A program made the translations under genes and the position numbers. From Victivallales bacterium (GTDB lineage: Bacteria > Verrucomicrobiota > Lentisphaeria > Victivallales > UBA1829): a stretch of 64,000 nt of DNA. The notes under the pieces are model-generated. The model was given only the letters and a program-made list of their open reading frames with translations, was not told the origin of the DNA and did no database searches. Below, piece after piece: positions 3,049 to 21,950 of this stretch. Within the stretch, counting starts at the first letter, position 1, and each line of letters starts with the position of its first letter. Location of the stretch: the NCBI GenBank assembly GCA_045592785.1, contig JAZNVL010000060.1, positions 2,045 through 66,044 of the forward strand, written 5' to 3'.

Positions 3049-3194
3049 ATGAACAATGTAGCGCCAAAAAACGAAAAGTCAATCGTCGGAGCAAATCTAT
3101 GCCTCCACAAAACGACCTGCTCCTCCGGAGCTTCCCGGTCGGGTCGGTCGTTTTGTTACGGCTATGCCTGATGCACAGGTTTATAATCAATCAT
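2998..3194. repeat. 14-bp perfect inverted repeat (ATGATTGATTATAA / TTATAATCAATCAT) bracketing ~170 bp
   Basis: 2998-3011 is the reverse complement of 3181-3194. The enclosed segment is non-coding and contains the hairpin at 3107-3156. Confidence 0.75.
3107..3156. terminator. Hairpin between convergent operons; possible bidirectional terminator
   Basis: ACAAAACGACC (3107-3117) pairs with GGTCGTTTTGT (3146-3156). The loop is GC-rich and contains the CTCCGGAG palindrome. T/A runs are part of the stem on both strands. It sits between the pAgo-partner stop (2733) and the brxL stop (3245). Confidence 0.4.
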
Positions 3195-3244: not shown

Positions 3245-5293
3245 TTAATTTTTAACATAGGTAATACCAAAACTTTTGCAAGATCGATACTCCTGGAGAG
3301 AATTTTGCAACGCAAAAGTATTATTACCATCGTAGTTCTGGAAAATATCCAAGCCGCGCCCCAGAATTATTTTCCAACCGGTATCCGTGGTTATTTCCCG
3401 ATCATGAATGGTTTCATCAAATGTGTAACTGAAATGGATTCCAGCTGGCATTACCGATGTAGCAATCTGGTCAAAGAAGTCTATTTGTTTTTCAGAGCCG
3501 AAGTCATCTGCCACAGTAATGAGGTTAATGGTAATTTCTTCATCTGCAGCCTTTGTTTTGATTAATCCTTCAAACAGTTCCATAAGATTGCGGATTTGCC
3601 AGTAAGTACGCAGATACGGATCGACAATCGTTACTGTTCTTGCACCTTTGAGATGGGGAACCAGTAATTTTTCAAATGATACCCCTTTACAGTTTTCTTG
3701 AAAGGTCAAGTTACCTTCAAAAAGTTCTGCTGTTTCTGTGGATGTTACACTGACTTGCGTCAATACGGGTTGATTGGGGACATTGTTGTTCTGTCCACTG
3801 CATGTATCGTCTTCAATATCGTTTCCAGAGGAGTAATATTGTGGATATTCAGTTTCTTCCAACGTCTGTACCTTAAACGTTGTTCCCGCTTTGTCAAAAT
3901 ATTGAAATATCGGTTTTGAATAGGTATGGTCAAAACGCATGATCTGATCTTTTACCCGTTTTCTTCCTTCGACCGCAAATGACAATAATTGTGCTGTTTC
4001 TTCGGGAGTCGCATCATTATTCGGGAAAATGATTTTCATCAGACCGGACATCGTTTTCTGAACAGCATCTCTGTCGCGGGTTGAAATGGACGCATCAAGT
4101 GTAAAATACTTCTGATAATCGGCAGACCGGTCATCATCACGGAATGCTCTGAGAATTTCAGCCAGATAATCAACCACAAAACCGTACCCATCTGAAAACA
4201 TTTCGCCACGGATGATATCAACTTCCCATCCGGGAATGTAAAAGTGAATGCGGTCCAGAAATGCGGAGTCATGATATTCTTTGGGCAATTCATCAAATAA
4301 ATCTGAATTTTTAAGCATATACGGAACGCTGTGCTGCGTGTTGCCTACAAATATCATAGATGCTTCGGCACTCAATGTTTCCACGCCGCGAGAAAACGAT
4401 TTGTTTGCCATATAGTTTTTCATTATATCGACAAGACTCTTATTCGGCTTTTTCTGCTTCCCGGCAAATTCATCAAATGCGATGGCATCCCAATAGCCGA
4501 CCAGACCAAGTTTTCCATTGGAGTTATTTACAAATAATTTCGGAACGGTTACTTCTCCCCCGGATAACAAGATCCCGTGAGGTGAAAATTCCGAATAAAT
4601 GTGCGATTTACCAGTGCCTTTAGGGCCTAATTCAATCAGGTTGTAATTGCGCTCACAATAGGGAATAAGGCGCATTAACTGGAATAATTTATTGCGTGCA
4701 CCAAACATCTCCGGATTGAAACCCATACTTTGGATCAGCAGATCAATCCATTCCTCAGTCGAAAATTGTTTTCTTGATTCCAGATAAAGTTCCCGGTCGA
4801 AATAGGACAGCTGAATCGGCTTCAGTGATTCCAATACCCAGGGGCATTGCATTTTATCGTCAGAAGGCATATACTCCAATGCGGCTATACACCAAATGCC
4901 GTTAACCAATAATTTCGGATGACTTTTGATCGTCTCGGCTGGAACTAAGACCTTGCTGATTCCCAAGTTAGAAAAAGTTGCTTCGTAAACATCGGCTTTG
5001 TCATTCAGCGCAACACTGATTTTGTCAATGACTTTGTGTCTGCCTTTTTCCTTGATCGTAGACCGGATCAATCCTGCTTCATTCCGATGTACATAATGTT
5101 CCCGCAGAATGTTTTTGACAGATTCGATACCTGTTCGGATGGATTCTTCATCGCTCGTTGCGCAATATTGCCCAAGTAAATATTCAAGGACATACGTTGG
5201 CACAATGGCATTGCCTTTTACTTCCTTTACTAAATCTTTGCGAACTACAACGCCGGAAAAAGCGTTACAAATTTTTTTATCAAAGTCTGTCAT
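3245..5293 (-). CDS. brxL: BrxL-family AAA+ protein; C-terminal ~150 aa are MIT_C/PLD-like rather than a Lon protease domain
   Basis: The N-terminus MTDFDKKICNAFSGVVVRKDLVKEVKGNAIVPTYVLEYLLGQYCATSDEES closely matches the BrxL N-terminus as I recall it. Walker A is GPKGTGKSH. The C-terminus reads VTIVDPYLRTYWQIRNL...IHDREITTDTGWKIILGRGLDIF, and I saw no GxSxG/Ser-Lys Lon motif. Confidence 0.85.
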   Translation of the reverse strand: MTDFDKKICNAFSGVVVRKDLVKEVKGNAIVPTYVLEYLLGQYCATSDEESIRTGIESVKNILREHYVHRNEAGLIRSTIKEKGRHKVIDKISVALNDKADVYEATFSNLGISKVLVPAETIKSHPKLLVNGIWCIAALEYMPSDDKMQCPWVLESLKPIQLSYFDRELYLESRKQFSTEEWIDLLIQSMGFNPEMFGARNKLFQLMRLIPYCERNYNLIELGPKGTGKSHIYSEFSPHGILLSGGEVTVPKLFVNNSNGKLGLVGYWDAIAFDEFAGKQKKPNKSLVDIMKNYMANKSFSRGVETLSAEASMIFVGNTQHSVPYMLKNSDLFDELPKEYHDSAFLDRIHFYIPGWEVDIIRGEMFSDGYGFVVDYLAEILRAFRDDDRSADYQKYFTLDASISTRDRDAVQKTMSGLMKIIFPNNDATPEETAQLLSFAVEGRKRVKDQIMRFDHTYSKPIFQYFDKAGTTFKVQTLEETEYPQYYSSGNDIEDDTCSGQNNNVPNQPVLTQVSVTSTETAELFEGNLTFQENCKGVSFEKLLVPHLKGARTVTIVDPYLRTYWQIRNLMELFEGLIKTKAADEEITINLITVADDFGSEKQIDFFDQIATSVMPAGIHFSYTFDETIHDREITTDTGWKIILGRGLDIFQNYDGNNTFALQNSLQEYRSCKSFGITYVKN

Positions 5294-5304
5294 AGCAATT
5301 CACC

Positions 5305-7812
5305 TCAAAAATCCAGATCTACCAACTGACGGCGCAGCTGATATTTGCGGGTTAAATATTCGTTATAATAAGTCGTACCAGACTCAAGTTCAAGAAGCTT
5401 TAATATGATTTCCTGACCATTGTATTTTTCGGCATCGCGAGTCAATACCAAGCCGCAAGTCACTTCTCTGTCACGGGGTTCTTTGCTGGTCAAATCGAAG
5501 AATATTTCATGCTCATCAGAAATCAGCTTGTTATCTTGCGAGTAGAGACCCACTTTCAACTTCCGCGGCAGCAACTTTCCTTCTACCGGCTGCTGCTGAT
5601 AGAAACGTACCGCCATTTGACCGGATGTGATAACTTGCATACCGGAAATAATATCAATATCGACGTAAGAAAGATCCCCTTCGCGTTTTTTATTGATTTT
5701 CAATATCGGAACAACGATTTCCTGCAGTGAGGATCCACCATGCACAAAACGGCTGCCGGCTCCTTTGACTCTCAAACGATTGATGGATTTTGCGATTTGG
5801 ACTTCACAGTTCCCATTCATCTCAAGTGTTTCAAGATCGTATTTTTGCAGACCATCAACAGGGGTGAGATCTTTACCTATAACAAAGCGGCGATTCACCT
5901 TGCATACTTCTGACCCTTGTGGTTCCCCGGCCAGAAAGTCGTTAGTAGGTAATTCCCGGTTTTGATAGATGAAACCGTGATCTGCGGTGACGATAATATT
6001 TGTGGCATTGTATCCGGCCAGACGCTTTACCATCGCTATAATCTCTGTAACAGCATCTTCGATCGCTTCGCAAGTCTTTATTTCGGTTGACAAGTCATCG
6101 CCTGTTTCATCGATCGTATTGTGATAAATGTAAACGAGTTCATTTTCTTTTGCAAGGGTTCGACCTTCATCTCTTGTGAGATTCATCAGTTCACTGGCAT
6201 TCAGAACCGCTGATTTCGGAATTTTGCTGCTCAGGACTTTTGCTCTCGCTGCAGAACCAAGTGTGCTTAATCCATCGACTGTAACGGAAATATTATCGCC
6301 TTCGCCATTTAATTCTATCTTTGAATGAGGAAGCAATGCAGCCATCCCCAATGCTGTATAACTGGGGATCACACTGCAGGCGGCTTCCAACGTGGCGGTA
6401 TAACGATCCTCTAACATGATCTTGCGCTGCAATTCTTCTGCAATCTCGTAACGCAAAGCATCTGATATAATAACAAATACTTTCTTTTTCTCTACGGACA
6501 TCGGGACAATATTGTTGTTGAAAAATCTGTCCTGACGTTTCGCCCCCGGGATCGGCCATGTCTTATAGGCGGAAAGTCGGTCCTGCCAGAGATTGTTCAA
6601 TGGCAGGAGATAGTTGTTGGAATAAAAGTTTTCCACCAGATCGTAAAGTGCCTTAAGCAAATCGTTCTGATTCGCAGCATTCGCATGAAAAATAAATTTA
6701 CGGTACAATTGATCCAGTTGAAAATATTGTTTTGTGTAATTTTCGAAGCCGTTCGCAAGGGAATCCATCGTAATGGTCGTGGAACTCTGAAGACTCAAAA
6801 ACATCGATGCATAATCCAATGCCAGATACGCATGTTCCAATTTCTTGTACCAGAAGGTTTGACGGCGTTCCCGGATGATATTGGAACATTCAACGGCTGA
6901 AATCGTCCGGGAAATGATTCCTGATGCAAGATTCGTTAATATGTGTCGATCGATTTCCTTGAACAAATCCAGGGAACCGAGGTCGCTTAAATTGCGTTTC
7001 GCAAGATCTTCCACGATCGCATTCTGCAAAGTCTCTGCCACCATGGCTGAACATTTTTCAAATGAACTGCCGTATTGACGGCTGTCCTTGAAGCGTTTCA
7101 GAAATACCAGTGCTTCATCGTTCAGACGGATTTCAGACGGACAAGCGGTCGACAAGGTCATCAAATAACAGGCATGGAATAAACGGTAAGCAAAGTCTTT
7201 GACCGAGGGGGACTGTGAATGATACCCGTAATGTTCCGCTGCCTTTTTCCACAGAAAACCGCTTAAATTGTATTTTTCAATTTCTGTATACTTTGCATCA
7301 TCGCCTTCTGCGAGTTCCTGCAAAAGTCGTTCCAGGATCGAGTCCAGTCTGCGATCCACACCCACTGTCGCAGCAAGCATCTTCATGCGAATAGCGCCAT
7401 CGGAATCATGTTCTCCCAACAACTTCTTTAATGCCTGACGCCGTTTCGCAGATGTGAAAAATTGGGGATGCTCATCCGTGAGGAAGGCAAAACTGTAATT
7501 CAAACCCAGTTCGCTGAGCCAGAGAGATGCCTGATCCGCCTGGAATGTGTCGTAAGTCAGTTCCAAATTCAGCAGCCAGTTATCGCTGTCTTTGGGCGTT
7601 GGACCGGACGAAAAGACCAAAAAGCGTTTTCCTGGTTCAGCCTTTAATACCCGGTGCATGACCGCAAATTCATTGTTCTGGACTTCGATTTTTTCCACAT
7701 CGGGCAATTTTAATGCTTCAAATTCGTCATGCAGCTCACTCTTCGTATCGCGCCAGCAGACAATGCGACTCTTTTCAAATTTCTGCAGCAGGATTTTTTC
7801 GGTTGGTGTCAT
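5305..7812 (-). CDS. pglZ: PglZ (alkaline-phosphatase-superfamily BREX protein)
   Basis: 835 aa in the canonical position upstream of brxL. PglZ-domain region: VFVIISDALRYEIAEEL...TADHGF. Confidence 0.9.
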   Translation of the reverse strand: MTPTEKILLQKFEKSRIVCWRDTKSELHDEFEALKLPDVEKIEVQNNEFAVMHRVLKAEPGKRFLVFSSGPTPKDSDNWLLNLELTYDTFQADQASLWLSELGLNYSFAFLTDEHPQFFTSAKRRQALKKLLGEHDSDGAIRMKMLAATVGVDRRLDSILERLLQELAEGDDAKYTEIEKYNLSGFLWKKAAEHYGYHSQSPSVKDFAYRLFHACYLMTLSTACPSEIRLNDEALVFLKRFKDSRQYGSSFEKCSAMVAETLQNAIVEDLAKRNLSDLGSLDLFKEIDRHILTNLASGIISRTISAVECSNIIRERRQTFWYKKLEHAYLALDYASMFLSLQSSTTITMDSLANGFENYTKQYFQLDQLYRKFIFHANAANQNDLLKALYDLVENFYSNNYLLPLNNLWQDRLSAYKTWPIPGAKRQDRFFNNNIVPMSVEKKKVFVIISDALRYEIAEELQRKIMLEDRYTATLEAACSVIPSYTALGMAALLPHSKIELNGEGDNISVTVDGLSTLGSAARAKVLSSKIPKSAVLNASELMNLTRDEGRTLAKENELVYIYHNTIDETGDDLSTEIKTCEAIEDAVTEIIAMVKRLAGYNATNIIVTADHGFIYQNRELPTNDFLAGEPQGSEVCKVNRRFVIGKDLTPVDGLQKYDLETLEMNGNCEVQIAKSINRLRVKGAGSRFVHGGSSLQEIVVPILKINKKREGDLSYVDIDIISGMQVITSGQMAVRFYQQQPVEGKLLPRKLKVGLYSQDNKLISDEHEIFFDLTSKEPRDREVTCGLVLTRDAEKYNGQEIILKLLELESGTTYYNEYLTRKYQLRRQLVDLDF

Positions 7813-7817
7813 TGTGC

Positions 7818-8837
7818 TTACCCCTGTCCTTCAGAAAGTTTTTTGATCACCTTATCAAAATCAGAAACAATGGGCTGTGTCCGATTGAATACATCATATT
7901 CCGCAGTCGCTTTGGCTTTTGCCTGTGACATGGAAATTTTACCTTTATCGCCATCCATAAGGATTTGATATTTGCGGAATGCCAGAAATTCATTGATACT
8001 TGCCGCAAATTCTTCCATTGTGAAGGTGTTTTCCCGTTCGATCAAATCTTCAATGTAATCAAAATAACCGGCGACTGTCCGTTCCAATTGACGGATTTCT
8101 TTTTCCTGTAAATAATTCTTGGCAATTGTCACATCTGTCTTCAGGATCCTGCCGTCCGGTGAATTCTTCCAGGTGACCAAACCCATGTGATCTTTATTCT
8201 TGTCGGCGTGAGTAAAAACGATTTCTGCGGCAGTCTGTCCTGTGATCGCAAAATGAAACTTGTTTTGCACCATGGCGTAAAAACTCCGGGTCAATTCCGA
8301 TTCCCTGTCATAATCAATGCTGCACTCCGCAAAAATATCGGTGATCTGCTGCCAGATGCGCCGTTCAGAGCTGCGGATGGAGCGGACTCGTTCCAGGAGT
8401 TCCCGGAAGTAATCTTTACCGAAAAGAGTTTTCCCCTGCTTGAGCCGTTCATCATCCATGGCAAAACCTTTGATCATATACTCTTTCAACACTCCGGTCG
8501 CCCAGATTCGGAACTGGGTGGCACGGCGGGAGTTGACCCGGTAGCCCACGGAAATGATTGCGTCAAGGTTATAATATTTCAGTTTGCGATTTACCTGCCG
8601 ATTGCCCTCCTGGCGAACTACCGAGATTTCCTCGGCAGTTGCATTTTCTGCCAATTCTCCATCTGCGTAAATGTTTTGCAGATGGAGAGATATATTGTCA
8701 GAAGTACAATCAAACAGTGTCGCCATTCCCTTTTGAGTCAGCCAAATGGTTTCATCTTTAACGGCGGCATCAATGCGGATATCTTCTTCCGGAGTACTGT
8801 ATATGATAAATTCAAGTCCATCAGGCATAATTTTCAC
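7818..8837 (-). CDS. RhuM-family (virulence protein RhuM / Fic-DOC-associated) protein embedded between pglX(C) and pglZ
   Basis: Typical RhuM family text: ...IWLTQKGMATLFDCTSDNISLHLQNIY...NLDAIISVGYRVNSRRATQFRIWAT.... The track start is GTG at 8837, overlapping the pglX(C) stop. An alternative ATG is at 8828. Confidence 0.75.
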   Translation of the reverse strand: MKIMPDGLEFIIYSTPEEDIRIDAAVKDETIWLTQKGMATLFDCTSDNISLHLQNIYADGELAENATAEEISVVRQEGNRQVNRKLKYYNLDAIISVGYRVNSRRATQFRIWATGVLKEYMIKGFAMDDERLKQGKTLFGKDYFRELLERVRSIRSSERRIWQQITDIFAECSIDYDRESELTRSFYAMVQNKFHFAITGQTAAEIVFTHADKNKDHMGLVTWKNSPDGRILKTDVTIAKNYLQEKEIRQLERTVAGYFDYIEDLIERENTFTMEEFAASINEFLAFRKYQILMDGDKGKISMSQAKAKATAEYDVFNRTQPIVSDFDKVIKKLSEGQG

Positions 8838-10828
8838 TCCTCCTTGGCTTCGAGACCGGGGATTTTTTTCAGGGCTGCGCCGAATTTACAATAGTTGACT
8901 TTTACGCCGTCGTCAAGGTCAATGGCGATCTTTTGCTGTGCCAGAGGGAAGATGACATCACGCTCGTAGTCTTCCAGTTCGGCGAGCTGAGCGGTGTATT
9001 TGTCGATCTGCTTCAAATTCCGGGTCTTATCGGCGTTGTTGATGTCGGTACGGTTGTTTTCTTCAATGAGGTGTTTGATGCGGGTGCTGATCTTGGTCAT
9101 CAACTCCCGGAGATATTCATTGAGAACGATGCTGACGGTATCAGGCGTGTAGCGGTGCAGATAGATCAGGGCATTGAAAGAACCTTTCGGAGAACTGAAA
9201 AGCCAGTAGATGGGGCGTTTTTTGTACCGTTGGATGTGTTCTTTGTAGAAATCCTTGACAAAGTATTTGCGGATATCTTTACCCAGCACCGCTTCAATAA
9301 AGTCCATATTGGCAGTGAGGTTTTCTTCTCCAAAGGTCAACGCAACAAAAGCTTTGAATTGAGTTACGATATCATCAAAGAACCATTCTTCATCCAGTAT
9401 CGGCAATATGCCATCCCGATCCATAATAAAGTGTTTATTCTCTCCGATAACGGGATAGAAAGAGGCATAAGACGATGTTAATTGCTGCTGTCCGTCATTC
9501 GCAGAAAATGAAACCATTGCTGGATCCTGCGAAAAAATATTTGAGCCAGTCACAGTTGTTTCATAGATAATCAGGTCTTCTTCCTGACCGTTGGATTGAT
9601 TGGCAAGGATCAAGCCTGATTTTTCAGGCGAGTATCTCCCCATCAAACAACCAACAGCGTAGGAGATGAATTCTTTGATCGTATCTGAAAGCAGCCTGTC
9701 TTCCAACTCTTTATTGTAAGGAAAATTCGCAGACAATACCGGATATGCTTCTGTGGTAGCAATACCATTGGAAGAACATTCGCAAATACTGTAAACATTG
9801 TCAATAACCTGCAACTGAGATTTTTCTCCTGTAACAGCTGAAATGTGCGAAATTGTAGATGTACTGGATTTATCAAGCGTTTTGCCATATCTGTACCACG
9901 GATTACAAGTCAATGTGATTTCATCCCAAGGCACGTCAGAAGTCAATTCATCCTGTAATCCATAAGCATCTATAAAAATGCGATTATTGCTCATTTCAAG
10001 CTGACGCATCTTTTCACAATCTTCAGTCCATTTTCTGCGGACTGAATCGTAAATACTCCAAATCGGAGTCTGTTTTACCCAACGGTCGCTATTATACTCT
10101 GCGATCAATGGATTTTTCTGAAAATCCCAAGAAGTTTCATAAGAATCCCAATTGTTTTTAGAAGATTTTACGCATTTTTCAGCATTACTTCCCGCGAAAT
10201 CAGCTACAGAGTCGCAAACAGGCAATCTTCCAACAACATCAGCACCAGTATTTATTGTTGGATTAATTGTTTCCAATGCGTAGTTAAATACTTTGGTGCT
10301 CATATAGGCAAGGTATTTCATCATTTCATTTGCATTATGTGGGAAAAGACTTGCTGCAGCATGATCAAATAAAAAACCTTTTCCATAATATCTGCAATGA
10401 AATTTTCCCGATGTAATAGCAGACCAACTTATTGCCGGACGGTAATATAAATCAATATATGTTGTCCTCGGGCGATGAAATAACGCAGATAGCCGCCATT
10501 TTATAATGTACTCGTTATCCCCATACCAACGTCTGAAATCGCCACCTTTTTTACAAGGGACATATTGTTTGTCTGATTTTTCAAACTCTTGGTTATTCGC
10601 AAAATTAAAAGCAATCTCTGAGCAATCGACCTCATACCAATAACGCATAAAGCGATCATTGTCTCCTGTCGATAATCCAGAACGGATTATTGCTAAATTT
10701 TCAAACTTTTTATTATTTGCAAAGCAATTTGTCAACTTTTCTGCCCAATACGCAATCGGGCTGCCGGGGATTTTCTTAAAATCCTCAGCAGACACGCGGA
10801 AAAAGTTTTTCGATTTATCTTTAGTCAT
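8834..10828 (-). CDS. pglX: PglX C-terminal half as a separate ORF
   Basis: Starts MTKDKSKNFFRVSAEDFKKIPGSPIAYW...GLSTGDNDRFMRYWYEV. In full-length PglX/Eco57I-like methyltransferases this segment directly follows the methyltransferase lobe. No methyltransferase motifs are present in this ORF. Its ATG overlaps the upstream stop (ATGA). Confidence 0.85.
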   Translation of the reverse strand: MTKDKSKNFFRVSAEDFKKIPGSPIAYWAEKLTNCFANNKKFENLAIIRSGLSTGDNDRFMRYWYEVDCSEIAFNFANNQEFEKSDKQYVPCKKGGDFRRWYGDNEYIIKWRLSALFHRPRTTYIDLYYRPAISWSAITSGKFHCRYYGKGFLFDHAAASLFPHNANEMMKYLAYMSTKVFNYALETINPTINTGADVVGRLPVCDSVADFAGSNAEKCVKSSKNNWDSYETSWDFQKNPLIAEYNSDRWVKQTPIWSIYDSVRRKWTEDCEKMRQLEMSNNRIFIDAYGLQDELTSDVPWDEITLTCNPWYRYGKTLDKSSTSTISHISAVTGEKSQLQVIDNVYSICECSSNGIATTEAYPVLSANFPYNKELEDRLLSDTIKEFISYAVGCLMGRYSPEKSGLILANQSNGQEEDLIIYETTVTGSNIFSQDPAMVSFSANDGQQQLTSSYASFYPVIGENKHFIMDRDGILPILDEEWFFDDIVTQFKAFVALTFGEENLTANMDFIEAVLGKDIRKYFVKDFYKEHIQRYKKRPIYWLFSSPKGSFNALIYLHRYTPDTVSIVLNEYLRELMTKISTRIKHLIEENNRTDINNADKTRNLKQIDKYTAQLAELEDYERDVIFPLAQQKIAIDLDDGVKVNYCKFGAALKKIPGLEAKEE
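10783..10828. repeat. Direct repeat copy 1 (functional 5' end of pglX(C))
   Basis: cctcagcagacacgcggaaaaagtttttcgatttatctttagtcat. On the minus strand it encodes MTKDKSKNFFRVSAE. Confidence 0.9.
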
Positions 10829-14243: not shown

Positions 14244-15287
14244 TTATGATTTTTTTATGACAGCGGTCTCTTTTGCTAACTCGGTTTCCAATTGCTCAAT
14301 TGATGGAAGAGATGATTTCAGATTTTCTGGAATAGATCGGGTCAATTCGTACTCTGAAATCCCGATTGGTTTATGAATATCCTGCAACGCATATTCTGCA
14401 ACAACTTTGTCTTTTGTCTTACAGAGTAAAAGTCCTATTGTCGGAGCATCCTGTTCACTCTTCAATTGACGATCAACTGCTGTTACATAAAAACTCAGTT
14501 GCCCGATATGCTCAGGCTTGAATGCCGCTGTTTTTAATTCAATAACAATGTAACAATGTAATTTGATATGATAGAACAGTAAATCTACATAAAAGTCTTG
14601 CTCTCCAACTTCTAAATGTACCTGTTTTCCTACAAAAGCAAAACCATCCCCCAATTCCAACAGAAAATTTGTTACATGTTGAACCAGAGCATGTTCAATA
14701 TCCCGTTCCTGAGCTTCCTGTCCTAATCCGAGAAAATCAAGTTTATATGGATCTTTCAAACACTCTATTGCCAAATCCGATTGTGGCGCAGGTAAGGTCA
14801 TAGAAAAATTGTTGGCTGCCTGTCCGATCCTTTTTGCCGTATCAAGTTCAATGTGGTGAACCATTGCATTGCGCGACCAACCATTTTTTACAGCAAGGCT
14901 CGCATATACAAGACGTTCTGATTTTTTAGAAAGTTTATCAAGTAAAGTTACCTGGTGATACCATGGCAATTGTCCAAGCGGCTCTTGGACAATTTCTGCT
15001 TCCGTCCAAGCCGCAGCAAATCCTCTCATATACATGAGGTTCGCCCGCGAAAAACCTTTCATTTCCGGAAAGGCGGTCCGCAAATCGTCTGCAAGGCGTG
15101 TAATTACTTTTGCGCCCCATCCTTGCATCTTTTGCCGTTCTAAAATTTCATGTCCAATTTGCCAATACAAACGGATAAGTTCAAGATTTACCGCTCGGGC
15201 TGCCTGTAGTTGAGTATTGGCAATTCGCTGTTTTAAATCGGATAACCATTGACTGTAATCTGAACTGATAAAATTAAAATCTTTCAT
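14244..15287 (-). CDS. DUF1016 / YhcG-like PDDEXK nuclease
   Basis: Family-typical N-terminus: ...LKQRIANTQLQAARAVNLELIRLYWQIGHEI. PD-(D/E)xK core: FYVDLLFYHIKLHCYIVIELK. Its ATG overlaps the pglX(N) stop. Confidence 0.8.
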   Translation of the reverse strand: MKDFNFISSDYSQWLSDLKQRIANTQLQAARAVNLELIRLYWQIGHEILERQKMQGWGAKVITRLADDLRTAFPEMKGFSRANLMYMRGFAAAWTEAEIVQEPLGQLPWYHQVTLLDKLSKKSERLVYASLAVKNGWSRNAMVHHIELDTAKRIGQAANNFSMTLPAPQSDLAIECLKDPYKLDFLGLGQEAQERDIEHALVQHVTNFLLELGDGFAFVGKQVHLEVGEQDFYVDLLFYHIKLHCYIVIELKTAAFKPEHIGQLSFYVTAVDRQLKSEQDAPTIGLLLCKTKDKVVAEYALQDIHKPIGISEYELTRSIPENLKSSLPSIEQLETELAKETAVIKKS

Positions 15288-17221
15288 CGTACCGCCTCCC
15301 GGAACATTGCGGCTTTTTCGGCTTCGTTGTTGCCGTCAACCAAACGGATGAAGGCTCCTTTGTAATCAGGGATGAGCGTATTGGTCATGGTAAAGGCTGT
15401 GGTCTGTACTACTTCGCCGCCGATGGAGTCAAAACCTCTGGCTCCCAAGTGCGCCATTGACAGAATGGTATTTTCATCCAGCAGTTTTGTCCGCAGTTTT
15501 TCAAAGGAAGAGAGAAACATCCAACTCTGCATAGTGATCATACCAATCGTTCCCTGATGCTGCACCAACTCCAAACACCGTTCAATAAACATGGCAAAGA
15601 GGTCGGATTTACTGTCGGAATAAAATCTTTCTGCAAAGCGTTTCAAGTCTGCATTCATACCTTTGCCGCCCATGTACGGGGGATTGGTCACTACTACATG
15701 GTATTTCTGTGAAAGATAGTCCGCCTGACAAAGCACTTTTTGAAGATTTTTATACTCTGCATCTTCAAAAAGTAAGTGATTAGTGGTTAGTGACCAGTTG
15801 TCAGAAGATTGCGAATAGCGATCAGAAAAGTATTCAGACAAAGCCATAAGTTTTTCGGATGAAAGTTTGGGGTGCAGCAAAGACCCCATGCAATCCGCTT
15901 TATCAAACATATTTATATCATGCAAGAAATCATCTGATTTACATCCAACTTGCTTACACGCTTCCTCAAACTGACCACTAAACACTGACCACTGACCACT
16001 GAAATTCTCCAGCACGCAAATCTGCGGGCGTGGAGAATTTTCTCGCCGCAGGAATCGGCTGTCATATTCTCTGGCTTTCATCGTCAGAGCAAATGCTGCC
16101 AGTTCTCCGGCTCGGGTGTCGATTTCCACTCCATGCAGATTTTTGAGCAATATCAGTGTTGGGATCTTCCGGCGGTCGTAGCCCTCTTCCTCATAAATTT
16201 TGACCAATAGATCAAAGGCATAGGTCAACATGTGTCCAGAACCGCAGCACGGATCGCAGATGCGAATTTCTTCCGGCGAAGAAATTTTTAAGTGGCTAGT
16301 GGCTAGTGTCCAGTGGTCAGATTTTTGCTGATTACCAGCCACTTCCCCATCACTAACCACTGCCCACTGATCACTGCCCACTTTTCCATCACTAGCCACT
16401 GAACACTGATCACTATCCACTGGAATATAGTATTCCATTTCGTCCGCTAACTTGGAGTTGGGGTGGTTGAGCATCCACAACCGTCCCAGAGAATTCTGCA
16501 CCAGATACCGCACGATCCAATCCGGCGTAAACAACTGGGTCGCCGCCGGAATGTCTTCGGTCTTGACGGTTTTGCCCATTACTTCATCTTTTTTTTCGGA
16601 AATATAGAACTGATAGAGCCATCCGATGACTTCCACGCCGTCCGCAGCCACATCTTCGGTAATGGCATCACGGGTCTTCATGAGTATAGAGTTCTCTTTC
16701 ATCAAATCATCGGGTAGCAGCAGCTCCGTATAATCATCGATTTTCTGAAACAGAAACGGCATCACCTTATTATAAGCGTTACACGCCGAAACCAGCAGCA
16801 GCTTATAGGCTTCAGCCTGACCATCTACCGCAGGGATTGAACCATCCAGCAATCCCTTGATACGCGTCCGATATTTGGAGTCGGCTACAAATGTTTCATC
16901 AATATTGCCGCCTTTGGCTTCTTCAAGGATCTCCGGCTGAAAATGCCCCGGCAAGGGCGAAACAATGCGAATGGAGTTATACCCCATCACATCCATAAAA
17001 CGCAATGCACAGAACCGGTTGAACCAAGTGTAAGCGATTTTATCGATCAACGCTTCATCGCCCAAGGCTTTGCGTGTTTTTTCCAATTCTGCCACAGCCT
17101 GCGGCTTTTCACGGCGGGCAGCACTGTTTTCAGCCAGCACCAACGGCAGAAGAGCCTTGACGATCTTCTGCAACTCCCGGCGGGCATCCTGGGCAAATCT
17201 TTTCAACCGATTCGTATCCAT
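15284..17221 (-). CDS. pglX: PglX N-terminal half (N6-adenine methyltransferase lobe) as a separate ORF
   Basis: Motif I: ICDPCCGSGHML. Motif IV: VVTNPPYMGGKGMN. The PglX-like N-terminal helical region (...WFNRFCALRFMD...) is present. The ORF ends just before the segment that pglX(C) begins with. Confidence 0.9.
   Translation of the reverse strand: MDTNRLKRFAQDARRELQKIVKALLPLVLAENSAARREKPQAVAELEKTRKALGDEALIDKIAYTWFNRFCALRFMDVMGYNSIRIVSPLPGHFQPEILEEAKGGNIDETFVADSKYRTRIKGLLDGSIPAVDGQAEAYKLLLVSACNAYNKVMPFLFQKIDDYTELLLPDDLMKENSILMKTRDAITEDVAADGVEVIGWLYQFYISEKKDEVMGKTVKTEDIPAATQLFTPDWIVRYLVQNSLGRLWMLNHPNSKLADEMEYYIPVDSDQCSVASDGKVGSDQWAVVSDGEVAGNQQKSDHWTLATSHLKISSPEEIRICDPCCGSGHMLTYAFDLLVKIYEEEGYDRRKIPTLILLKNLHGVEIDTRAGELAAFALTMKAREYDSRFLRRENSPRPQICVLENFSGQWSVFSGQFEEACKQVGCKSDDFLHDINMFDKADCMGSLLHPKLSSEKLMALSEYFSDRYSQSSDNWSLTTNHLLFEDAEYKNLQKVLCQADYLSQKYHVVVTNPPYMGGKGMNADLKRFAERFYSDSKSDLFAMFIERCLELVQHQGTIGMITMQSWMFLSSFEKLRTKLLDENTILSMAHLGARGFDSIGGEVVQTTAFTMTNTLIPDYKGAFIRLVDGNNEAEKAAMFREAVR
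15775..16001. repeat. Inverted pair of heptamer-periodic patches inside pglX(N)
   Basis: Plus strand 15775-15804: AGTGATT AGTGGTT AGTGACC AGTTGTC AG. Plus strand 15971-16001: CTGACCA CTAAACA CTGACCA CTGACCA CTG. They are translated in frame as SDNWSLTTNHL and SGQWSVFSGQ. Confidence 0.85.
16291..16423. repeat. Second inverted pair of heptamer-periodic patches inside pglX(N), just upstream of motif I
   Basis: Plus strand 16291-16320: AGTGGCT AGTGGCT AGTGTCC AGTGGTC AG. Region 16336-16423 is an array of NNNCCAC-type heptamers containing a 39-nt tandem duplication (VDSDQCSVASDGK / VGSDQWAVVSDGE). AGTGGCTAGTG (16291-16301) is the exact reverse complement of 16390-16400. Confidence 0.85.
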
Positions 17222-17239: not shown

Positions 17240-20200
17240 TCAAAGTTGGATCCGCTTGCCGGATTTAAGTTTTTCCTGCAGATCTTTGCGGAGTTTTTCC
17301 AATTCACTCTGCCACAGAGCCATATATTCAGCAAGGTCTTCTTCGCTTTCCAGCCACGGTTTGCTGAAACTGACTTTCGCTTTGGGCATCGGAACGGATT
17401 CAATGGGCTTTTCTTCTACCACAGGATGTGCCAATGTGTAAAGTTGTTCCAGAAGTTTTTTGTAACGTTCATTTTCGAATTTTTGTAATCTTCCCTGAAC
17501 GCTGTAAATACTGTTCTGAGCATTGATATCCTCAAGGTTTTCAGAAAAGACAGCAAGCAACGCAGTTTGCTGCGCAGTATCCAGTAATGCGAAATCCGGT
17601 TTTTGTTTGAATTCCAGCTGCAAGTTTTCAATGCGTTTGTGACTGCAATCAATCTCATTGCGCAGAAGCTCGTTGAGCTGTTTTGTCAATAATTCCGTCA
17701 ACTCTTTCAAGCGATTCATCCGATTGCCTTTGAAGCAGTGCGGAGAACTCAATATATCTTCAAATTCCCGACGTTCTGCAACAAGGACATCCGACGGGAA
17801 ATCTATGTAGTTGTGCCGCTGAAAGTTTTTTGCTGTATCAAAAATCTCTTTTGCGTTGCCAGTCATGAAGGATATAACCGGATCGATACAGTCTTCTTTA
17901 TCATCGCACAGCACATCCAGATCACCCGGTTTACATTCGGTGAAGAAATATGCGGCAGGTTTACTTGCAAATTTTTTCAATCTGAGGAGCGGATCCAGCA
18001 ATTCACCCTGGAAAGGATAATGGCTGCGTGTGGCGTTATAGCCTTCCAAGGTCGCCACAAGCTCTTTCAGCTTCCGGATCAGGTCATTACCCAACTGCTT
18101 TGGATCTTCTGCATTGGCCGGTTCCTGGAAGTAGTCGACGTAGAATTCCTTGACACGTTTGACCTGATGGGGTTCGTAGTCCAATTGCAGTTCCAGCGTA
18201 ACGTTATCATGACAATGAGAGTTTTTCAGAGCTGCGATCTGTTTTTCTGCATCAAGCAGTTCTCCATCGGACCGCATTTCCAATTTATTACGGATCGACA
18301 GTTGTGCAAGCAGACAGAAGATCGCCGCATCATACCAGCCATAGGGACGGGCGGAGAGTTTATCTTTCAGGCTTTTAAGCGTTGTTCTCAACCCATTGTT
18401 TTTATTGGCGCGCAGTAAATTGAGGATCTCAGTTTCGGCTTCAGACAAGGTTGGAGAAAACAGGTTCGGGGTTGCATTCCGGTAATATGCAGGAATATTG
18501 TTTTCTGTGTATGGCGTGCCTTCAATCATTTTGAGGTTTGGATAGATCGTCTGGATCAACTCCTGGCATCCGCTTATGATCAATTGTTTTGCATTTTCGC
18601 TTTTCAGTTCACAAACACGCCCGTTGATAAAAAATTGGGCTTGGGAGATGAGTGATTCCGTGCGGACTTTGATCTCACGTTCTCTATCCCGGTTACCGAT
18701 CATTTTGTTATCCAGAATGCGTCTGATATTTTCGTTTTGCGTGTTGCCGTTCAGTTTTGCGTACTTTTCCGTTCTCAGCAGAAGGGTGACATCGACCATT
18801 AAACGGGAGTCAGAAGGCAATACGATAAACAGTTCCGCTTTGCCCATAGATTCCGTTAAGAATTCATCATACCGATACGATTCCTGCCATGGTGTAATAA
18901 CATGAATCGCCAGTTCCCGTTCCGCATTGAGATTGCGTCCATCCATTTTTTTACAGAATGTGTAATCATAGCCGGTCGTGACACAGCGGACTTTCATACC
19001 GCCGATGATCTGTTCAAAGATGATCTTGTTTAATATTTCCAAAACATCTGCGGTATCGATTGCTGTATTTTTGATTTCTTTTTCGATATCCTGTTCTTCA
19101 TCGGTCAGGTATTCGTAATATTCACCATTGCGCTGGATATAGGACTGGCTTTCCAGTTTATTGAGGGATTCCTGAACTCTTTTCAACAAATCCGGAGCGT
19201 TTTCAGCAAATGATTCCCGCATCAGCACTGTCATATTGCGTGCCGTAGCCCGGAACGTCCGTACATATTTGACCAGGAACAGAGTTTTCAATGTCCGGAT
19301 GGTGAATATATCATCCGGCATTTGATTTTCTGCCGTATGAATCGCCCGTACCGCATTGGATTTTACGGAATGCCTGATCCCCTCATACATCAAGTCAAAA
19401 GGTGCAATGCAGCCAAGCTCTTTTGATGCAAGATTTTTTGCAACCTCCTGAAATACTCCCAGCATAGAACGTTCCCCTACAGAATTGTGACGTCCTTCAA
19501 AAATGTTGTGTTCAGACAGATTCTGAATTGCGGTCTGGAACAACCCGAATTGATACGGGATAAAGGGATAACAGGAAATAAAATCCTGAGCATCCGTAAA
19601 ATTCTTGTAGACCGTTGCGCCGTCTGTAAAGTTGAACAGAGTCTTGAAGTTGTTGCTTTGTTCCGCATAGATCTTGTTCAGTTGTGGTACAAAGTCGTCC
19701 TTCTTAGCCAGCAGACGTTTGCGGATTACTTCATCGACGTTGGCACTGGTCAATTTCAATCTGTTTGCAAAACGGGCCTGGATCTTTGAAAAGTCGTTGC
19801 CTTGTTTTTTGCCGATTTCACCGAAAACGCTGGTCATATCTTCCTGGGCTGTCACAATGATCCATGCCTGACCACGGCAAACGGTAGCAAGTTCTTCTGC
19901 CAAACTTTGCAGATTGAGCATCAATTGGGTATTGTCTGCAATATACTGTCCCACTTCATCGACAAAAAAGTTCAAACGGAATCCTTTCGGTTGTTTATCG
20001 ATGTAGGACTTTATCATTTTTGCGAAATCTTCAATCGAAAGGTTATAGTCCTTACGATATTTATCGATGATCCCGTTTGCCGTTTCCACCGGTTCGCCGG
20101 AGACTTCAGCATAGGCCTTTGCAATATTGCGTCCTTCCAGGATGGCTTGTGTTCTCCCCTTATCCCAAGTTTTTTTGGATATGTTCTGGAATGCGTCCTT

Positions 20201-20737
20201 GAATTTTTCATACAAACCGCGGCTGTCAAGATCCCGCTCGAACTGCGCGATGTACCCTTGCTTGCCGTAATATCCGCACATTTCATCAAATACTTTTACG
20301 AAAACAGAAAGCAGTGCATCCGTTTGCTTGGTCGTGATCGCATCAGATTTTTGATCGATATTGAAAAGAATACTTTTTGACGGAGTACTGCAAGCCTTTA
20401 ATAAGGAAGCCTGTAACTCTGCATCACCTTCGCATTTAGGAATAAACAATTCGGCAACAGATTTTTCATCTACGGTGTTGTTTTCAAGCAGCAGAGAGAG
20501 CATTTTGAGCAAGTGAGATTTCCCGGAACCAAAGAAGCCGGATATCCACACACCGTTTTGGGTTGCTGCACTGTAGTCGTTGTACGCAGACAGAAACAAC
20601 GAAAGACTCTTCTGCACTTCGTTGGTCAATACATATTCTTCAATCTCGTTGAGAAGTGAACTGGCATCATCCGCCTTGATAACGCCTTCGATCGGACGAT
20701 TGATCCTTTTAGAAAAAATATCATTCAATATTGCCAT
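17240..20737 (-). CDS. brxC: BrxC/PglY P-loop ATPase
   Basis: 1165 aa. Walker A: GFFGSGKSHLLKM. Canonical position between brxB and pglX. Confidence 0.9.
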   Translation of the reverse strand: MAILNDIFSKRINRPIEGVIKADDASSLLNEIEEYVLTNEVQKSLSLFLSAYNDYSAATQNGVWISGFFGSGKSHLLKMLSLLLENNTVDEKSVAELFIPKCEGDAELQASLLKACSTPSKSILFNIDQKSDAITTKQTDALLSVFVKVFDEMCGYYGKQGYIAQFERDLDSRGLYEKFKDAFQNISKKTWDKGRTQAILEGRNIAKAYAEVSGEPVETANGIIDKYRKDYNLSIEDFAKMIKSYIDKQPKGFRLNFFVDEVGQYIADNTQLMLNLQSLAEELATVCRGQAWIIVTAQEDMTSVFGEIGKKQGNDFSKIQARFANRLKLTSANVDEVIRKRLLAKKDDFVPQLNKIYAEQSNNFKTLFNFTDGATVYKNFTDAQDFISCYPFIPYQFGLFQTAIQNLSEHNIFEGRHNSVGERSMLGVFQEVAKNLASKELGCIAPFDLMYEGIRHSVKSNAVRAIHTAENQMPDDIFTIRTLKTLFLVKYVRTFRATARNMTVLMRESFAENAPDLLKRVQESLNKLESQSYIQRNGEYYEYLTDEEQDIEKEIKNTAIDTADVLEILNKIIFEQIIGGMKVRCVTTGYDYTFCKKMDGRNLNAERELAIHVITPWQESYRYDEFLTESMGKAELFIVLPSDSRLMVDVTLLLRTEKYAKLNGNTQNENIRRILDNKMIGNRDREREIKVRTESLISQAQFFINGRVCELKSENAKQLIISGCQELIQTIYPNLKMIEGTPYTENNIPAYYRNATPNLFSPTLSEAETEILNLLRANKNNGLRTTLKSLKDKLSARPYGWYDAAIFCLLAQLSIRNKLEMRSDGELLDAEKQIAALKNSHCHDNVTLELQLDYEPHQVKRVKEFYVDYFQEPANAEDPKQLGNDLIRKLKELVATLEGYNATRSHYPFQGELLDPLLRLKKFASKPAAYFFTECKPGDLDVLCDDKEDCIDPVISFMTGNAKEIFDTAKNFQRHNYIDFPSDVLVAERREFEDILSSPHCFKGNRMNRLKELTELLTKQLNELLRNEIDCSHKRIENLQLEFKQKPDFALLDTAQQTALLAVFSENLEDINAQNSIYSVQGRLQKFENERYKKLLEQLYTLAHPVVEEKPIESVPMPKAKVSFSKPWLESEEDLAEYMALWQSELEKLRKDLQEKLKSGKRIQL

Positions 20738-20748: not shown

Positions 20749-21354
20749 TCAAATTTCATAATGCGTTATGTCGTACGCACGATAATACTTATCATCCGGC
20801 AGTTTGCCAAACAACCGTAATGATGCGCCTTTTTCCAGAGATTGTTCATAAGCTCCCGGAAAGAACAGCAGCGTTGGGAATTCCTTTGCGACACGCTGCA
20901 AGTTGTTCAGCAGATTGTGCGTCCTGATGTATGGAAAGACTTCACCCACACCTGTGAGGAAGAGAATATCCACTTTTTCTGTGCTTTCTATGATCTGTTC
21001 GATTTCCGGGATCAGGACATTTTCGATGTCAAGAATGCTTTGAAGCGATTCGAGAAAATAGCCTTTTTCTGTATCGGGTTCGATTTCGCATAACTGTTCA
21101 AACAAATCATTTTTCTGCAGGTAATCAAGGCATAAATCGTAGAGATTGATATCGACTATTCCAAGACCGGAATCCTGAAGTTGCTTTTTTAGAAGCGGCA
21201 ACATCTTTTCAACTTCGAGTTTCTGTTTGACCGCAAAAGGACAAAGGAAGAAAGGCACTTCCTGGTTCAAGCCCTGCATTTTCAAAAAACACTCATTACG
21301 GAGGACTTTGAGCAGATGGTTGAATAAATCATTGATCTTCAAAAAACCGGTCAT
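20749..21354 (-). CDS. brxB: BrxB (DUF1788)
   Basis: 201 aa. C-terminal pattern: LFLTGVGEVFPYIRTHNLLNNL...LLFFPGAY...LRLFGKL...YYRAY. Confidence 0.85.
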   Translation of the reverse strand: MTGFLKINDLFNHLLKVLRNECFLKMQGLNQEVPFFLCPFAVKQKLEVEKMLPLLKKQLQDSGLGIVDINLYDLCLDYLQKNDLFEQLCEIEPDTEKGYFLESLQSILDIENVLIPEIEQIIESTEKVDILFLTGVGEVFPYIRTHNLLNNLQRVAKEFPTLLFFPGAYEQSLEKGASLRLFGKLPDDKYYRAYDITHYEI

Positions 21355-21950
21355 CGGATACCTCCATATTCATTTGTGGGAAAGTATCCCAATTCTTCTG
21401 CCTTTAACATGGTACGCAATTCCGAAGAACAATAGAATGCAAGTATTTCATTATTCCGTCCCAGAATATTGCATTCACGAAGCAATTTGAAAACGATCTG
21501 TTTGATTTTTTTTCTGGTCATGTCTGTCAACTCATTCAACTCGGGATGCAACGTGCTTTTCTTTTCAAAAAACAACTCATAATCGCAATCTTCTATGCTT
21601 TTCTGAAAAGAAATATATTTTTCATGGATCACTTCTTTTGCAAAATCACCGATAAAAGAGTATGATCTGCAAATTGCCAGCCACAATATCGCTTCACTAT
21701 TAGAGGGATCGTCATTTGCAAGAATTTGTAATTCCGATGTGGACAAATGTTTGAGACGTAATTTAATTTCAACATAAATACGCTTTTGACTGCTGATTGA
21801 ATTTAATTGCAAAATGTTATCAGATAAAACCTCATTATAAACTGCATCCCAGTCTGCATAACGCAAAAACAGTTCTGCGATTATGGCAGACTCCCTGCGG
21901 CGTAAGCTGGATGCTGTAAATGACATTGTGTATTTTTTCTGCATCTGCAT
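21351..21950 (-). CDS. brxA: BrxA (DUF1819)
   Basis: 199 aa, first gene of the operon, with a 4-nt overlap with brxB. Size and position fit BrxA. The start may be a downstream Met. Confidence 0.8.
   Translation of the reverse strand: MQMQKKYTMSFTASSLRRRESAIIAELFLRYADWDAVYNEVLSDNILQLNSISSQKRIYVEIKLRLKHLSTSELQILANDDPSNSEAILWLAICRSYSFIGDFAKEVIHEKYISFQKSIEDCDYELFFEKKSTLHPELNELTDMTRKKIKQIVFKLLRECNILGRNNEILAFYCSSELRTMLKAEELGYFPTNEYGGIR

Follow-up and report, generated by a model that had tools for sequence, protein, structure and literature searches.

An MIT_C-type BrxL closing a BREX-1 operon carries a conserved pocket that may form a nuclease by pairing

Results

Genes and features of the locus

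The window analyzed here is a 64,000-nucleotide stretch of contig JAZNVL010000060.1 from a Victivallales bacterium. Six BREX-1 components occupy positions 3245-21950, all on the minus strand, in the order brxA-brxB-brxC-pglX(split)-pglZ-brxL (Table 1). The stop codon of brxL is TAA at 3245-3247 (minus strand). Three terminator-like sites were found, versus 0.8 expected from shuffles.

The pglX gene of this BREX locus is divided into two genes around cargo genes. A split pglX is not mentioned in the available text of a BREX survey (PMC12839542, in which the word "split" occurs 0 times) or in passages of PMC12065111.

Table 1. Coordinates of the BREX-1 genes and of the brxL features in the window
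Feature	Position	Strand	Evidence
G+C-rich inverted repeat with T-runs, 22-nt arms, ~90 nt past brxL stop	3107..3156	.	Terminator-like, both strands
brxL, MIT_C-type variant, 682 aa, last gene of BREX-1 operon	3245..5293	-	ORF translation, TIGR02688, PADLOC PDLC02508
MIT_C domain of brxL, residues 537-681, predicted MITD1-type PLD-superfamily fold	3251..3685	-	Pfam PF16565, 7e-40
H630-x-R632-x4-D637-x2-W640-x5-R646-G-L-D649, putative HKD-like half-site of BrxL	3347..3406	-	Codons read directly; conservation
D558-P-Y560-x-R562 motif of BrxL, just past strand 2 of MIT_C domain	3608..3622	-	Conservation; predicted strands
brxL linker, poorly conserved, residues 461-536	3686..3913	-	Pfam match absent
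BrxL AAA+ ATPase, residues 152-460	3914..4840	-	Pfam PF13337, 8e-128
BrxL_N DNA-binding region, residues 11-141	4871..5263	-	Pfam PF20442, 1.3e-48; aligns with 8EMC
pglZ, BREX-1 type A	5305..7812	-	TIGR02687, 769 bits; PglZ domain (Pfam)
pglX C-terminal half, profile positions 650-1209 of 1210	8834..10828	-	NF033452, 597.8 bits
pglX N-terminal methyltransferase half, profile positions 1-645 of 1210	15284..17221	-	NF033452, 693.4 bits; Eco57I + N6_Mtase (Pfam)
brxC	17240..20737	-	NF033441, 1129 bits
brxB	20749..21354	-	PF08747, 2.1e-39
brxA	21351..21950	-	PF08849, 2.4e-46

We regard it as virtually certain that the open reading frame at 3245-5293 is brxL of a type-1 BREX operon with an MIT_C tail. 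The protein scored 616.5 bits against TIGR02688 (cut-off, 329.3) and 1103.3 bits against PADLOC PDLC02508, a full-length model of the BrxL-MIT_C architecture, with residues 1-682 placed on profile positions 1-695 of 698. An earlier note on this DNA, made from the sequence alone, had read the first ~500 residues as BrxL. Both Pfam matches to this part (Table 1) confirmed that assignment, as did a PDB sequence search in which residues 4-467 matched Acinetobacter BrxL (8EMC; 2.5e-131). The Walker A motif is GPKGTGKS, with K229, and the Walker B residues are D274-E275; E275 aligned to E280 of 8EMC, a Walker B residue mutated in the study of that protein (PMC10164562). The strings quoted in the note are all present in the BrxL translation: GPKGTGKSH (residues 224-232), VTIVDPYLRTYWQIRNL, INLITV, and IHDREITTDTGWKIILGRGLDIF. 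The N-terminal region and AAA+ ATPase are ordinary BrxL parts, followed by a variable linker of ~75 residues and then by MIT_C.

The note placed its claim at 3245-3710, which is the 3′ end of the open reading frame, about residues 529-682 plus the TAA, and took this tail for a PLD-like MIT_C domain. Pfam PF16565 matched here with 136.7 bits (cut-off, 25) over profile positions 1-142 of 142, a result far beyond chance, and residues 529-655 matched human MITD1 4A5Z in the PDB sequence search (3.2e-14).

The C-terminal domain is not a Lon domain

The tail had also been said to lack an S16 Lon fold, and the searches bore this out. Lon_C gave no match in the whole of BrxL at E ≤ 0.01, nor in residues 520-682 (window 3248-3736, minus strand; the query in all domain-alone searches) at E ≤ 10, although a sample of 401 genomes from the phylum held 8 other BrxL genes in which it was readily found. 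TIGR02653, the model for Lon-type BrxL, scored 574 bits, under its cut-off of 628.25, and aligned to positions 3-469 of 675 only. With the C-terminal third unaligned and Lon_C absent, the Lon-related full-length BrxL form was rejected for this protein. The Foldseek matches listed for the predicted domain were MITD1 and PLD enzymes, and Lon was absent from them. A diverged Lon (S16) protease-like domain would fit the names given to homologues in public sources ("ATP-dependent Lon protease," "Lon protease-like protein BrxL") and the N-terminal 469 positions that are common to BrxL and TIGR02653, but the results above leave it next to no chance, and the Lon reading is already refuted. The public label "Lon protease" is misleading for MIT_C-type BrxL.

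The MIT_C domain is predicted to fold like MITD1

Structure prediction, which the earlier note had proposed as a check alongside a Pfam search, gave an AF2 model of the MIT_C domain with a pLDDT of 91.9 and a pTM of 0.88. The top Foldseek match of this model was human MITD1 (4a5z_B; E 5.9e-15, TM 0.81/0.83 over 157 columns, 30% identity), followed by PLD2, BfiI, Tdp1, PLD3/4, Zucchini, and NgoAVII (E 1e-4 to 1.4e-3, TM 0.37-0.48). The MIT_C family profile matched MITD1 2YMB at E 9.7e-48. Two designed repeat proteins that matched the domain profile (E 4.6e-5 and 0.0016) were dismissed as noise; no single stretch passes. As modeled, the MIT_C domain has a PLD-superfamily fold.

Strands are predicted at domain residues 34-38 and 114-117. 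D558 is domain position 39, and H630 and R632 form an HxR motif at domain positions 111-113. In passages of PMC12065111, the family is defined by a D/E past strand 2 and an H-D/x-R motif preceding strand 5, and the domain has both.

BrxL does not have the classical HxK(x)4D motif of HKD domains but HxR(x)4D, with one motif per chain, and PLDc families gave no match to residues 520-682 at E ≤ 10. When the MIT_C alignment was compared by hhalign with 19 cardiolipin-synthase second HKD domains of relatives, the result was not significant (probability 0.36%, E 0.17). The H-x-R-x4-D-x2-W of MIT_C is in register with the H-x-K-x4-D-x2-W of cardiolipin synthase, and hhalign picked the same register; since only this motif register agrees, a sequence-profile link to classical HKD domains was not accepted. 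Searched by itself against PADLOC, the domain hit BrxL PDLC02508 and nothing else at E ≤ 1, with no match to DruE or other defense proteins. A ThsB match of a second sequence (PADLOC, E 0.021) was at chance level.

MIT_C-type BrxL is a common, published variant

The earlier note named a common, already catalogued C-terminus among the outcomes that would count against its claim, and the MIT_C tail is indeed such a form of BrxL; this takes the novelty from the observation but leaves it correct. All three of BrxL_N, ATPase, and MIT_C were present in 120/120 homologues listed. In the 401-genome sample, 13/30 BrxL genes had an MIT_C tail, and 8/30 had no C-terminal domain. BrxL with a C-terminal MIT_C or "HKD (HRD) endoDNase" is described in passages of Li et al. 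(NAR 2025, PMC12065111), and the BREX survey (NAR 2026, PMC12839542) reports it, in the part available, from 1030/2913 taxa. MIT_C-type BrxL, at ~35 to 43% of BrxL, is therefore a published variant and no discovery; already present in Pfam-annotated databases, PADLOC, and two NAR papers, the architecture adds little as a finding.

MIT_C-type BrxL stood at no fewer than two places on the ATPase tree. A single clade of all 13 was rejected (p-AU 6.4e-64), a rejection that rests on one long-branch row (L007) joining the short forms; without L007, a single clade of 12 is not rejected (p-AU 0.176). Among metagenome proteins, the fusion partners of MIT_C also include BrxA, PglZ, Helicase_C, GIY-YIG, and S1 with RuvA_N.

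Pocket residues are near-invariant in a faster-diverging domain

Conservation was read from an alignment of 121 sequences, the query and the 120 listed homologues. D558, R562, Q566, and N569 were found in 121/121, as was K229 of the ATPase. H630, R632, W640, and R646 were each present in 120/121, the single miss being a gap, and D649, D637, and Y560 were present in 119/121, 118/121, and 117/121, respectively. The HDR motif named in the earlier note was right in its H and R, but the middle residue is variable (A in 90/121, D in 30/121), so the motif is HxR. Mean identity to the query was 79 to 80% in the N-terminal region and ATPase, 56% in MIT_C, and 33% in residues 470-535. The H, R, W, RGLD, D, and Y were invariant in 12 diverse sequences that are 30 to 64% identical, and PDB alignments place the pocket residues in human MITD1 as well.

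Discussion

A candidate nuclease formed by pairing

Judging from sequence, the predicted fold, and analogy, we lean toward the view that the MIT_C domain of BrxL is a nuclease by pairing. The ATPase ring would load onto unmodified phage DNA. Each MIT_C domain would bear one half-site, made of D558-P-Y, H630-x-R632-x4-D637, and R646-G-L-D649, and therefore two domains would have to pair. HKD enzymes with one motif per chain need a dimer to make their active site. The simplest route to pairing would be a tail-to-tail contact between rings, as C-terminal domains make in Lon-type BrxL. Between them, the paired domains would create a DNA-cutting phosphodiesterase site of the PLD type, and this BREX would have another nuclease in addition to PglZ.

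The near-invariant pocket in a faster-diverging domain, the HKD register, the PLD fold, and the precedent of Druantia DruE suggest such a nuclease, and the fusion partners, which are nucleic-acid proteins, point the same way. According to passages on DruE (bioRxiv 10.64898/2026.05.13.724313), its two MITD1-like PLD domains form one pocket that includes D1740, H1830, D1917-R1918-Y1919, H1999, and R2001, and the D1740A mutation abolishes both ATP-dependent ssDNA degradation and phage defense. That the swap may add a nuclease to BREX is a published hypothesis: passages of both published analyses (PMC12065111 and PMC12839542) propose an enzyme. In the passages of the top papers from a literature search, no experiment on any MIT_C-type BrxL was found.

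Several points count against a nuclease. The catalytic lysine is swapped for arginine in MIT_C, the HKD profile link is nonsignificant, and PLDc is without a match. MITD1 is known, from the passages available, for membrane binding and midbody stabilization, not for catalysis. The equatorial chamber of Lon-type BrxL is described as ~80 Å wide (passages of PMC10164562), so sites on the chamber wall might miss the DNA. According to the available part of PMC12839542, Salmonella BREX can do without BrxL, and the main nuclease is now taken to be PglZ.

The loss of the lysine and the nonsignificant profile link also favor a different view, in which MIT_C is a noncatalytic assembly module that takes over from a dead Lon-like domain the known task of keeping two BrxL rings together tail to tail. 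The ligand of its conserved polar pocket would then be a phosphate, a nucleotide, or some other subunit of BREX, and DNA would not be cut. Catalysis of MITD1 is not known in the passages at hand, the Lon-type C-terminal domain mediates ring-ring dimerization without a catalytic motif (passages of PMC10164562), and the 8/30 sample genes without any C-terminal domain fit as well. We nevertheless consider an assembly module rather unlikely. It leaves unexplained the near-invariance of D558, R562, Q566, N569, H630, R632, and R646-G-L-D649 in the faster-diverging domain, as well as pocket residues kept from bacteria to human, and the DruE pocket, which is of the same kind, is reported to be a working nuclease.

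MIT_C could also bind membrane phospholipid as in MITD1, which would station BrxL at the site of phage DNA entry on the inner membrane. The PLD fold of MITD1 reportedly binds membranes, a finding attributed to Hadders in 2012, and MITD1 is matched by both the MIT_C profile (E 9.7e-48) and the fold (TM 0.81). We find this improbable, since the prokaryotic fusion partners are DNA/RNA proteins and not membrane proteins and passages of PMC10164562 describe BrxL as a DNA-encircling ring.

Returning to a nuclease by pairing, we tentatively offer a stronger form of it as a possibility. MIT_C would pair only once two rings have come together, tail to tail, around DNA, and the double ring would be an ATP-licensed nuclease chamber. 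BrxL would then be a true DNA-cutting effector, not a PglZ helper, in the third or more of BREX-1 systems that have this variant, and the domain would be a shuffled effector cassette, a notion based on the presence of MIT_C on BrxA and PglZ and at two or more places on the ATPase tree. BREX is without an agreed way of stopping phage DNA, and, as a possible second nuclease, a conserved PLD-type pocket on a DNA-encircling motor is a direct candidate that is cheap to test.

Comparison with known systems

The protein itself does not differ from published MIT_C BrxL (PMC12065111, PMC12839542, PDLC02508), as described in the passages available: it has the same three domains end to end and the same HxR...D motif, and it likewise closes a BREX-1 operon in which PglZ is retained. 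The locus differs by its split pglX and cargo. Acinetobacter BrxL (8EMC/8EMH; Shen et al. 2023, PMC10164562) aligns in its N-terminal region and ATPase (residues 4-467), with Walker A and B conserved, and is described there as a ring-forming, DNA-dependent ATPase. Its residues 498-679 form a Lon/RadA-like domain that lacks a catalytic motif and through which two rings are held tail to tail, each C-terminal domain touching its counterpart on the other ring. Where that protein has its Lon/RadA-like domain, the BrxL described here has a predicted PLD-fold MIT_C with a conserved pocket.

The C-terminal domain of human MITD1 (4A5Z, 2YMB) is homologous over the whole domain, and both proteins have D-P-Y-I-R, Q, N, I-H-D-R-E-I, G-W, and G-R-G-L-D. 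MITD1 differs in that, as far as the passages go, its N-terminal MIT domain docks on ESCRT-III, it acts at the cytokinetic midbody, and it has no motor domain, DNA context, or known catalysis. The single-HKD nucleases BfiI, Zucchini/PLD6, and NgoAVII R-protein have the same superfamily fold (E 2.8e-4 to 1.4e-3, TM 0.37-0.44) and, like MIT_C-type BrxL, one motif per chain; they have HxK, whereas MIT_C-type BrxL has HxR and no sequence-profile match to them. Druantia type III DruE, as described in passages of the bioRxiv report, likewise carries a MITD1-like PLD module C-terminal to an ATP-driven DNA motor and acts in phage defense; D, H, D-R-Y, and H-x-R lie in its pocket, and a mutant there loses both nuclease activity and defense. 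DruE has two such domains per chain on an SF2 helicase, whereas BrxL has one per chain on an AAA+ ring, and the likeness would be one of function, with no PADLOC link in sequence.

BrxL carries an MIT_C domain where Lon-type BrxL has a Lon-like domain

brxL is the closing gene of a minus-strand BREX-1 operon. Positions 3245-3710, described in an earlier note as a BrxL with its Lon-protease domain replaced by an MIT_C/phospholipase D (PLD)-like domain, are the 3′ end of the brxL open reading frame (ORF), and the protein strings quoted there were all present in its translation. As the note proposed, the N-terminal region and AAA+ domain are those of a BrxL: Pfam assigned BrxL_N and BrxL_ATPase, and residues 4-467 matched Acinetobacter BrxL (8EMC; 2.5e-131) in a PDB sequence search. 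In the same search, residues 529-655 matched human MITD1 (4A5Z; 3.2e-14), and the full MIT_C profile aligned to the C terminus. Lon_C was not matched by the whole protein at E ≤ 0.01 or by residues 520-682 alone at E ≤ 10. The protein passed TIGR02688, the short NCBIfam BrxL model (616.5 versus 329.3 bits), and missed the cutoff of TIGR02653, the Lon-type full-length model (574 versus 628.25 bits; only positions 3-469 of 675 aligned). The presence of MIT_C in place of Lon is confirmed far beyond chance.

Features of the defense island and domains of BrxL (window positions unless residues are stated)
Feature	Position	Strand	Remarks
pAgo-like ORF	3-1403	+	5′ end open, cut by window start
276-aa protein	1464-2294	+	Next after pAgo-like ORF; no family match
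Terminator-like inverted repeat	3107-3156		
brxL	3245-5293	-	682 codons; TAA stop at 3245-3247
BrxL_N	residues 11-141		Pfam, 1.3e-48
BrxL_ATPase	residues 152-460		Pfam, 8e-128
MIT_C (PF16565)	residues 537-681		Pfam, E 7e-40; 136.7 bits versus cutoff of 25; full profile 1-142
pglZ	5305-7812	-	
RhuM-family gene	7818-8837	-	PF13310, 3e-105; PADLOC PDC-S05
pglX, C-terminal half	8834-10828	-	Profile 650-1209 of 1210
pglX, N-terminal half	15284-17221	-	Profile 1-645 of 1210
brxC	17240-20737	-	
brxB	20749-21354	-	
brxA	21351-21950	-	
tRNA-Tyr	25486-25570		Island end
tRNA-Gly	25596-25669		Island end

The C-terminal 163 residues were aligned with the same region of 11 BrxL genes from genomes of the phylum (30 to 64% identity to the query), and an AlphaFold2 model was built from this alignment (mean pLDDT, 91.9; pTM, 0.88). 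MITD1 chains topped the Foldseek list for the predicted model against the PDB (4a5z_B; E 5.9e-15; TM, 0.81; 30% identity), followed by the PLD-superfamily enzymes PLD2, polyphosphate kinase, BfiI, Tdp1, PLD3/4, Zucchini, and NgoAVII (E 1e-4 to 1.4e-3; TM, 0.37 to 0.48). The list held no Lon protease. With the alignment profile, MITD1 was recovered at 9.7e-48, the match spanning the entire domain. A Lon-like role for this C terminus can be dismissed with near certainty.

Pocket residues are conserved, with an HxR motif

Conservation was assessed in the query and 120 homologues listed in a large protein collection. D558, R562, Q566, and N569 were present in 121/121 sequences; H630, R632, W640, and R646-G-L in 120 (the remaining sequence is truncated and has a gap there); D649 in 119; and D637 in 118. 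The same pocket residues were invariant across the 12 diverse aligned domains and are found in human MITD1. Since the middle position of the "HDR" motif named in the earlier note holds A in 90 sequences and D in 30, the motif is HxR. In the model, D558 lies just after strand 2 and HxR ahead of strand 5, the positions given by Li et al. (PMC12065111) for catalytic residues of such PLD domains. Identity to the query averaged 79% for the N-terminal region, 80% for the ATPase, and 33% for the linker. MIT_C, at 56%, diverges faster than the motor, its pocket residues staying fixed.

H-x-R-x4-D-x2-W falls in register with H-x-K-x4-D-x2-W of the cardiolipin-synthase HKD domains of relatives. hhalign chose the same register, with a match that was not significant (probability, 0.36%; E 0.17), and no PLDc family matched the C-terminal domain at E ≤ 10. 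Membership in the HKD family by sequence was rejected on these values. MIT_C and HKD enzymes have only the superfamily fold in common.

The architecture is widespread and already described

PADLOC BrxL model PDLC02508 spans the architecture end to end (1103.3 bits; residues 1-682 on profile 1-695 of 698), and the C-terminal domain by itself aligned to its positions 533-695. In the large-collection search, all 8,000 candidates scored were at E ≤ 0.001, and domains are known for at least the 120 listed. PF20442, PF13337, and PF16565 occurred together in 120/120 of these listed homologues, which are 65 to 100% identical, come from several phyla, and, where named, are called "BREX system Lon protease-like protein BrxL" or "ATP-dependent Lon protease."

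A less biased census used 401 genomes drawn evenly from the phylum, the window's genome included. BrxL_ATPase scored above its cutoff at 30 places in 29 genomes, 13 of which places had MIT_C in the same open frame. Leaving aside the window's own gene, Pfam sorted the remaining 29 BrxL ORFs into four C-terminal classes: MIT_C (12, one cut by a contig end), Lon_C (8, one partial), a 684-aa long form whose C terminus matched no family at E ≤ 0.001 (1), and forms that stop directly after the ATPase (8). With the window's gene, the MIT_C type made up 13/30 (43%) of sampled BrxL.

Li et al. hypothesized that BrxL and MITD1 are enzymes. A 2026 BREX survey (PMC12839542) reports an "HKD-endoDNase" with an HRD motif replacing the Lon-like domain in 1,030/2,913 BrxL-bearing type 1 BREX taxa and proposes an auxiliary nuclease role for it. 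Taken together, the PADLOC model, the listed homologues, the census, and these descriptions indicate that the variant was already known; the suggested departure from catalogued BrxL forms did not hold. The observation and its interpretation are correct, and their novelty is nil. Whether MIT_C of BrxL cuts DNA, and how this would be licensed, is the subject of a published hypothesis.

MIT_C falls in three places on the BrxL tree and occurs in other proteins

A maximum-likelihood tree was built from the N-terminal and ATPase regions of 29 BrxL (the window's and 28 sampled genes; partial L031 left out). MIT_C-type BrxL was spread over three parts of the tree: nine, the window's included, formed one starred clade; three formed another amid Lon-type forms; and L007 was a long branch beside short forms. 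A single clade of all 13 was rejected (p-AU, 6.4e-64); with L007 removed, a single clade of 12 was not (p-AU, 0.176). More than one domain swap is suggested, resting on that one long branch.

Among 1.84 billion representatives, MIT_C was found in 1,052 proteins at E ≤ 0.001; of these, 491 reached E ≤ 1e-10 and 51 reached E ≤ 1e-30. Pfam was run on 73 of the best 150, many of which were BrxL or BrxL fragments. Elsewhere, MIT_C followed BrxA (P0151, P0149, and P0159), a PglZ domain (P0269, a fragment), Helicase_C (P0202), IF2_N (P0175, P0216, and P0219), or PKD domains (P0208); accompanied DUF7669 (P0161) or DUF7669, DUF6884, and GIY-YIG (P0195); or stood as a tandem pair beside RuvA_N and S1 domains (P0162). 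These partners, known from metagenome protein sequences alone, are mostly nucleic-acid proteins, which would fit a nucleic-acid target. Within BREX, the consulted passages of the 2026 survey assign the HKD domain chiefly to BrxL, and BrxA or PglZ fusions go unmentioned there.

Weak MIT_C matches (E 2e-5 to 8e-4), confined to profile positions 57-125, occurred in open frames of 359 to 422 aa in G179, G263, G233, G308, G248, G059, G029, G335, and G349, mostly from one family of the phylum (f32). These may be a separate PLD-like family.

The operon has a split pglX and lies in a defense island

What makes this locus more unusual is its pglX, split in two around cargo genes. Between its halves (8834-17221) are four same-strand genes with overlapping stop and start codons: a YhcG/DUF1016 nuclease gene, genes for 432-aa and 343-aa unknown proteins, and a DUF2806/Abi_alpha-like gene. 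The last is flanked by a 47-nt direct repeat (10783-10829 and 11860-11906; 89% identical) that duplicates codons 1-15 of the pglX C-terminal half and looks like a cassette junction. Two adjoining 39-nt copies (16328-16405; 77% identical) lie within the coding sequence of the N-terminal half, and similar inverted copies occur at 15775-15793 and 16291-16407.

The same split with other cargo was seen in 2/10 sampled MIT_C-type loci with a visible pglX: L011 (SIR2 and HerA) and L014 (a 405-aa unknown). The RhuM-family gene that separates pglZ from the pglX C-terminal half has a counterpart in the same place in L011, from a relative of the same family (L011:5582-6616; 73% identity). In L014 (genome G142), brxC and the pglX N-terminal half are separated by a HEC-02A/HEC-02B candidate defense pair (L014:2554-4172; PADLOC 5e-107 and 5e-51), marking a second cargo site in the operon. 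In L011 (genome G055), brxC comprises a 1,045-aa ORF and a separate 149-aa ORF matching the BrxC C terminus (L011:13971-17518; PDLC02479 positions 1027-1170); either a frameshift or a split could account for this.

The island (1-25700), with pAgo, BREX and its cargo, and a DUF4357 gene, has a G+C content of 0.33 to 0.47 versus about 0.50 to 0.55 beyond 26 kb. The pAgo-like ORF aligns to long pAgo models over their C-terminal half (PADLOC PDLC02384; 1.5e-172; profile 567-1030 of 1030) and also matches a SIR2-fused class I model.

A nuclease site may form by pairing of MIT_C domains

In the Lon-type structure (PMC10164562), the N-terminal and ATPase domains are described as hexameric or heptameric rings round DNA, which the C-terminal domains join tail to tail, each touching its counterpart in the opposite ring. 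Since each BrxL chain has one MIT_C domain, pairing would be needed for a putative nuclease site, and the ring-ring contact would offer a ready two-fold partner. By analogy with Druantia DruE, we somewhat favor such a nuclease, formed as two MIT_C domains pair. Against it stands the K-to-R change relative to the HKD motif, and the literature searched yielded no experiment on an MIT_C-type BrxL. An assembly or ligand-binding role free of catalysis is an unlikely though serious alternative. The 80-Å-wide equatorial chamber reported for the Lon-type structure also counts against nuclease pairing, as does the dispensability of BrxL in Salmonella BREX noted in PMC12839542. A further point against it is that the role known for MITD1 concerns membranes, not catalysis. 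Membrane binding by MIT_C is improbable.

The account of DruE (bioRxiv 10.64898/2026.05.13.724313) describes two MITD1-like PLD domains forming one pocket that includes D1740, H1830, D1917-R1918-Y1919, H1999, and R2001, and D1740A abolished both ATP-dependent single-stranded DNA degradation and defense. A two-domain MITD1-type pocket can therefore be a motor-coupled nuclease. In DruE both MITD1-like domains lie in one chain, whereas each BrxL chain supplies a single one.
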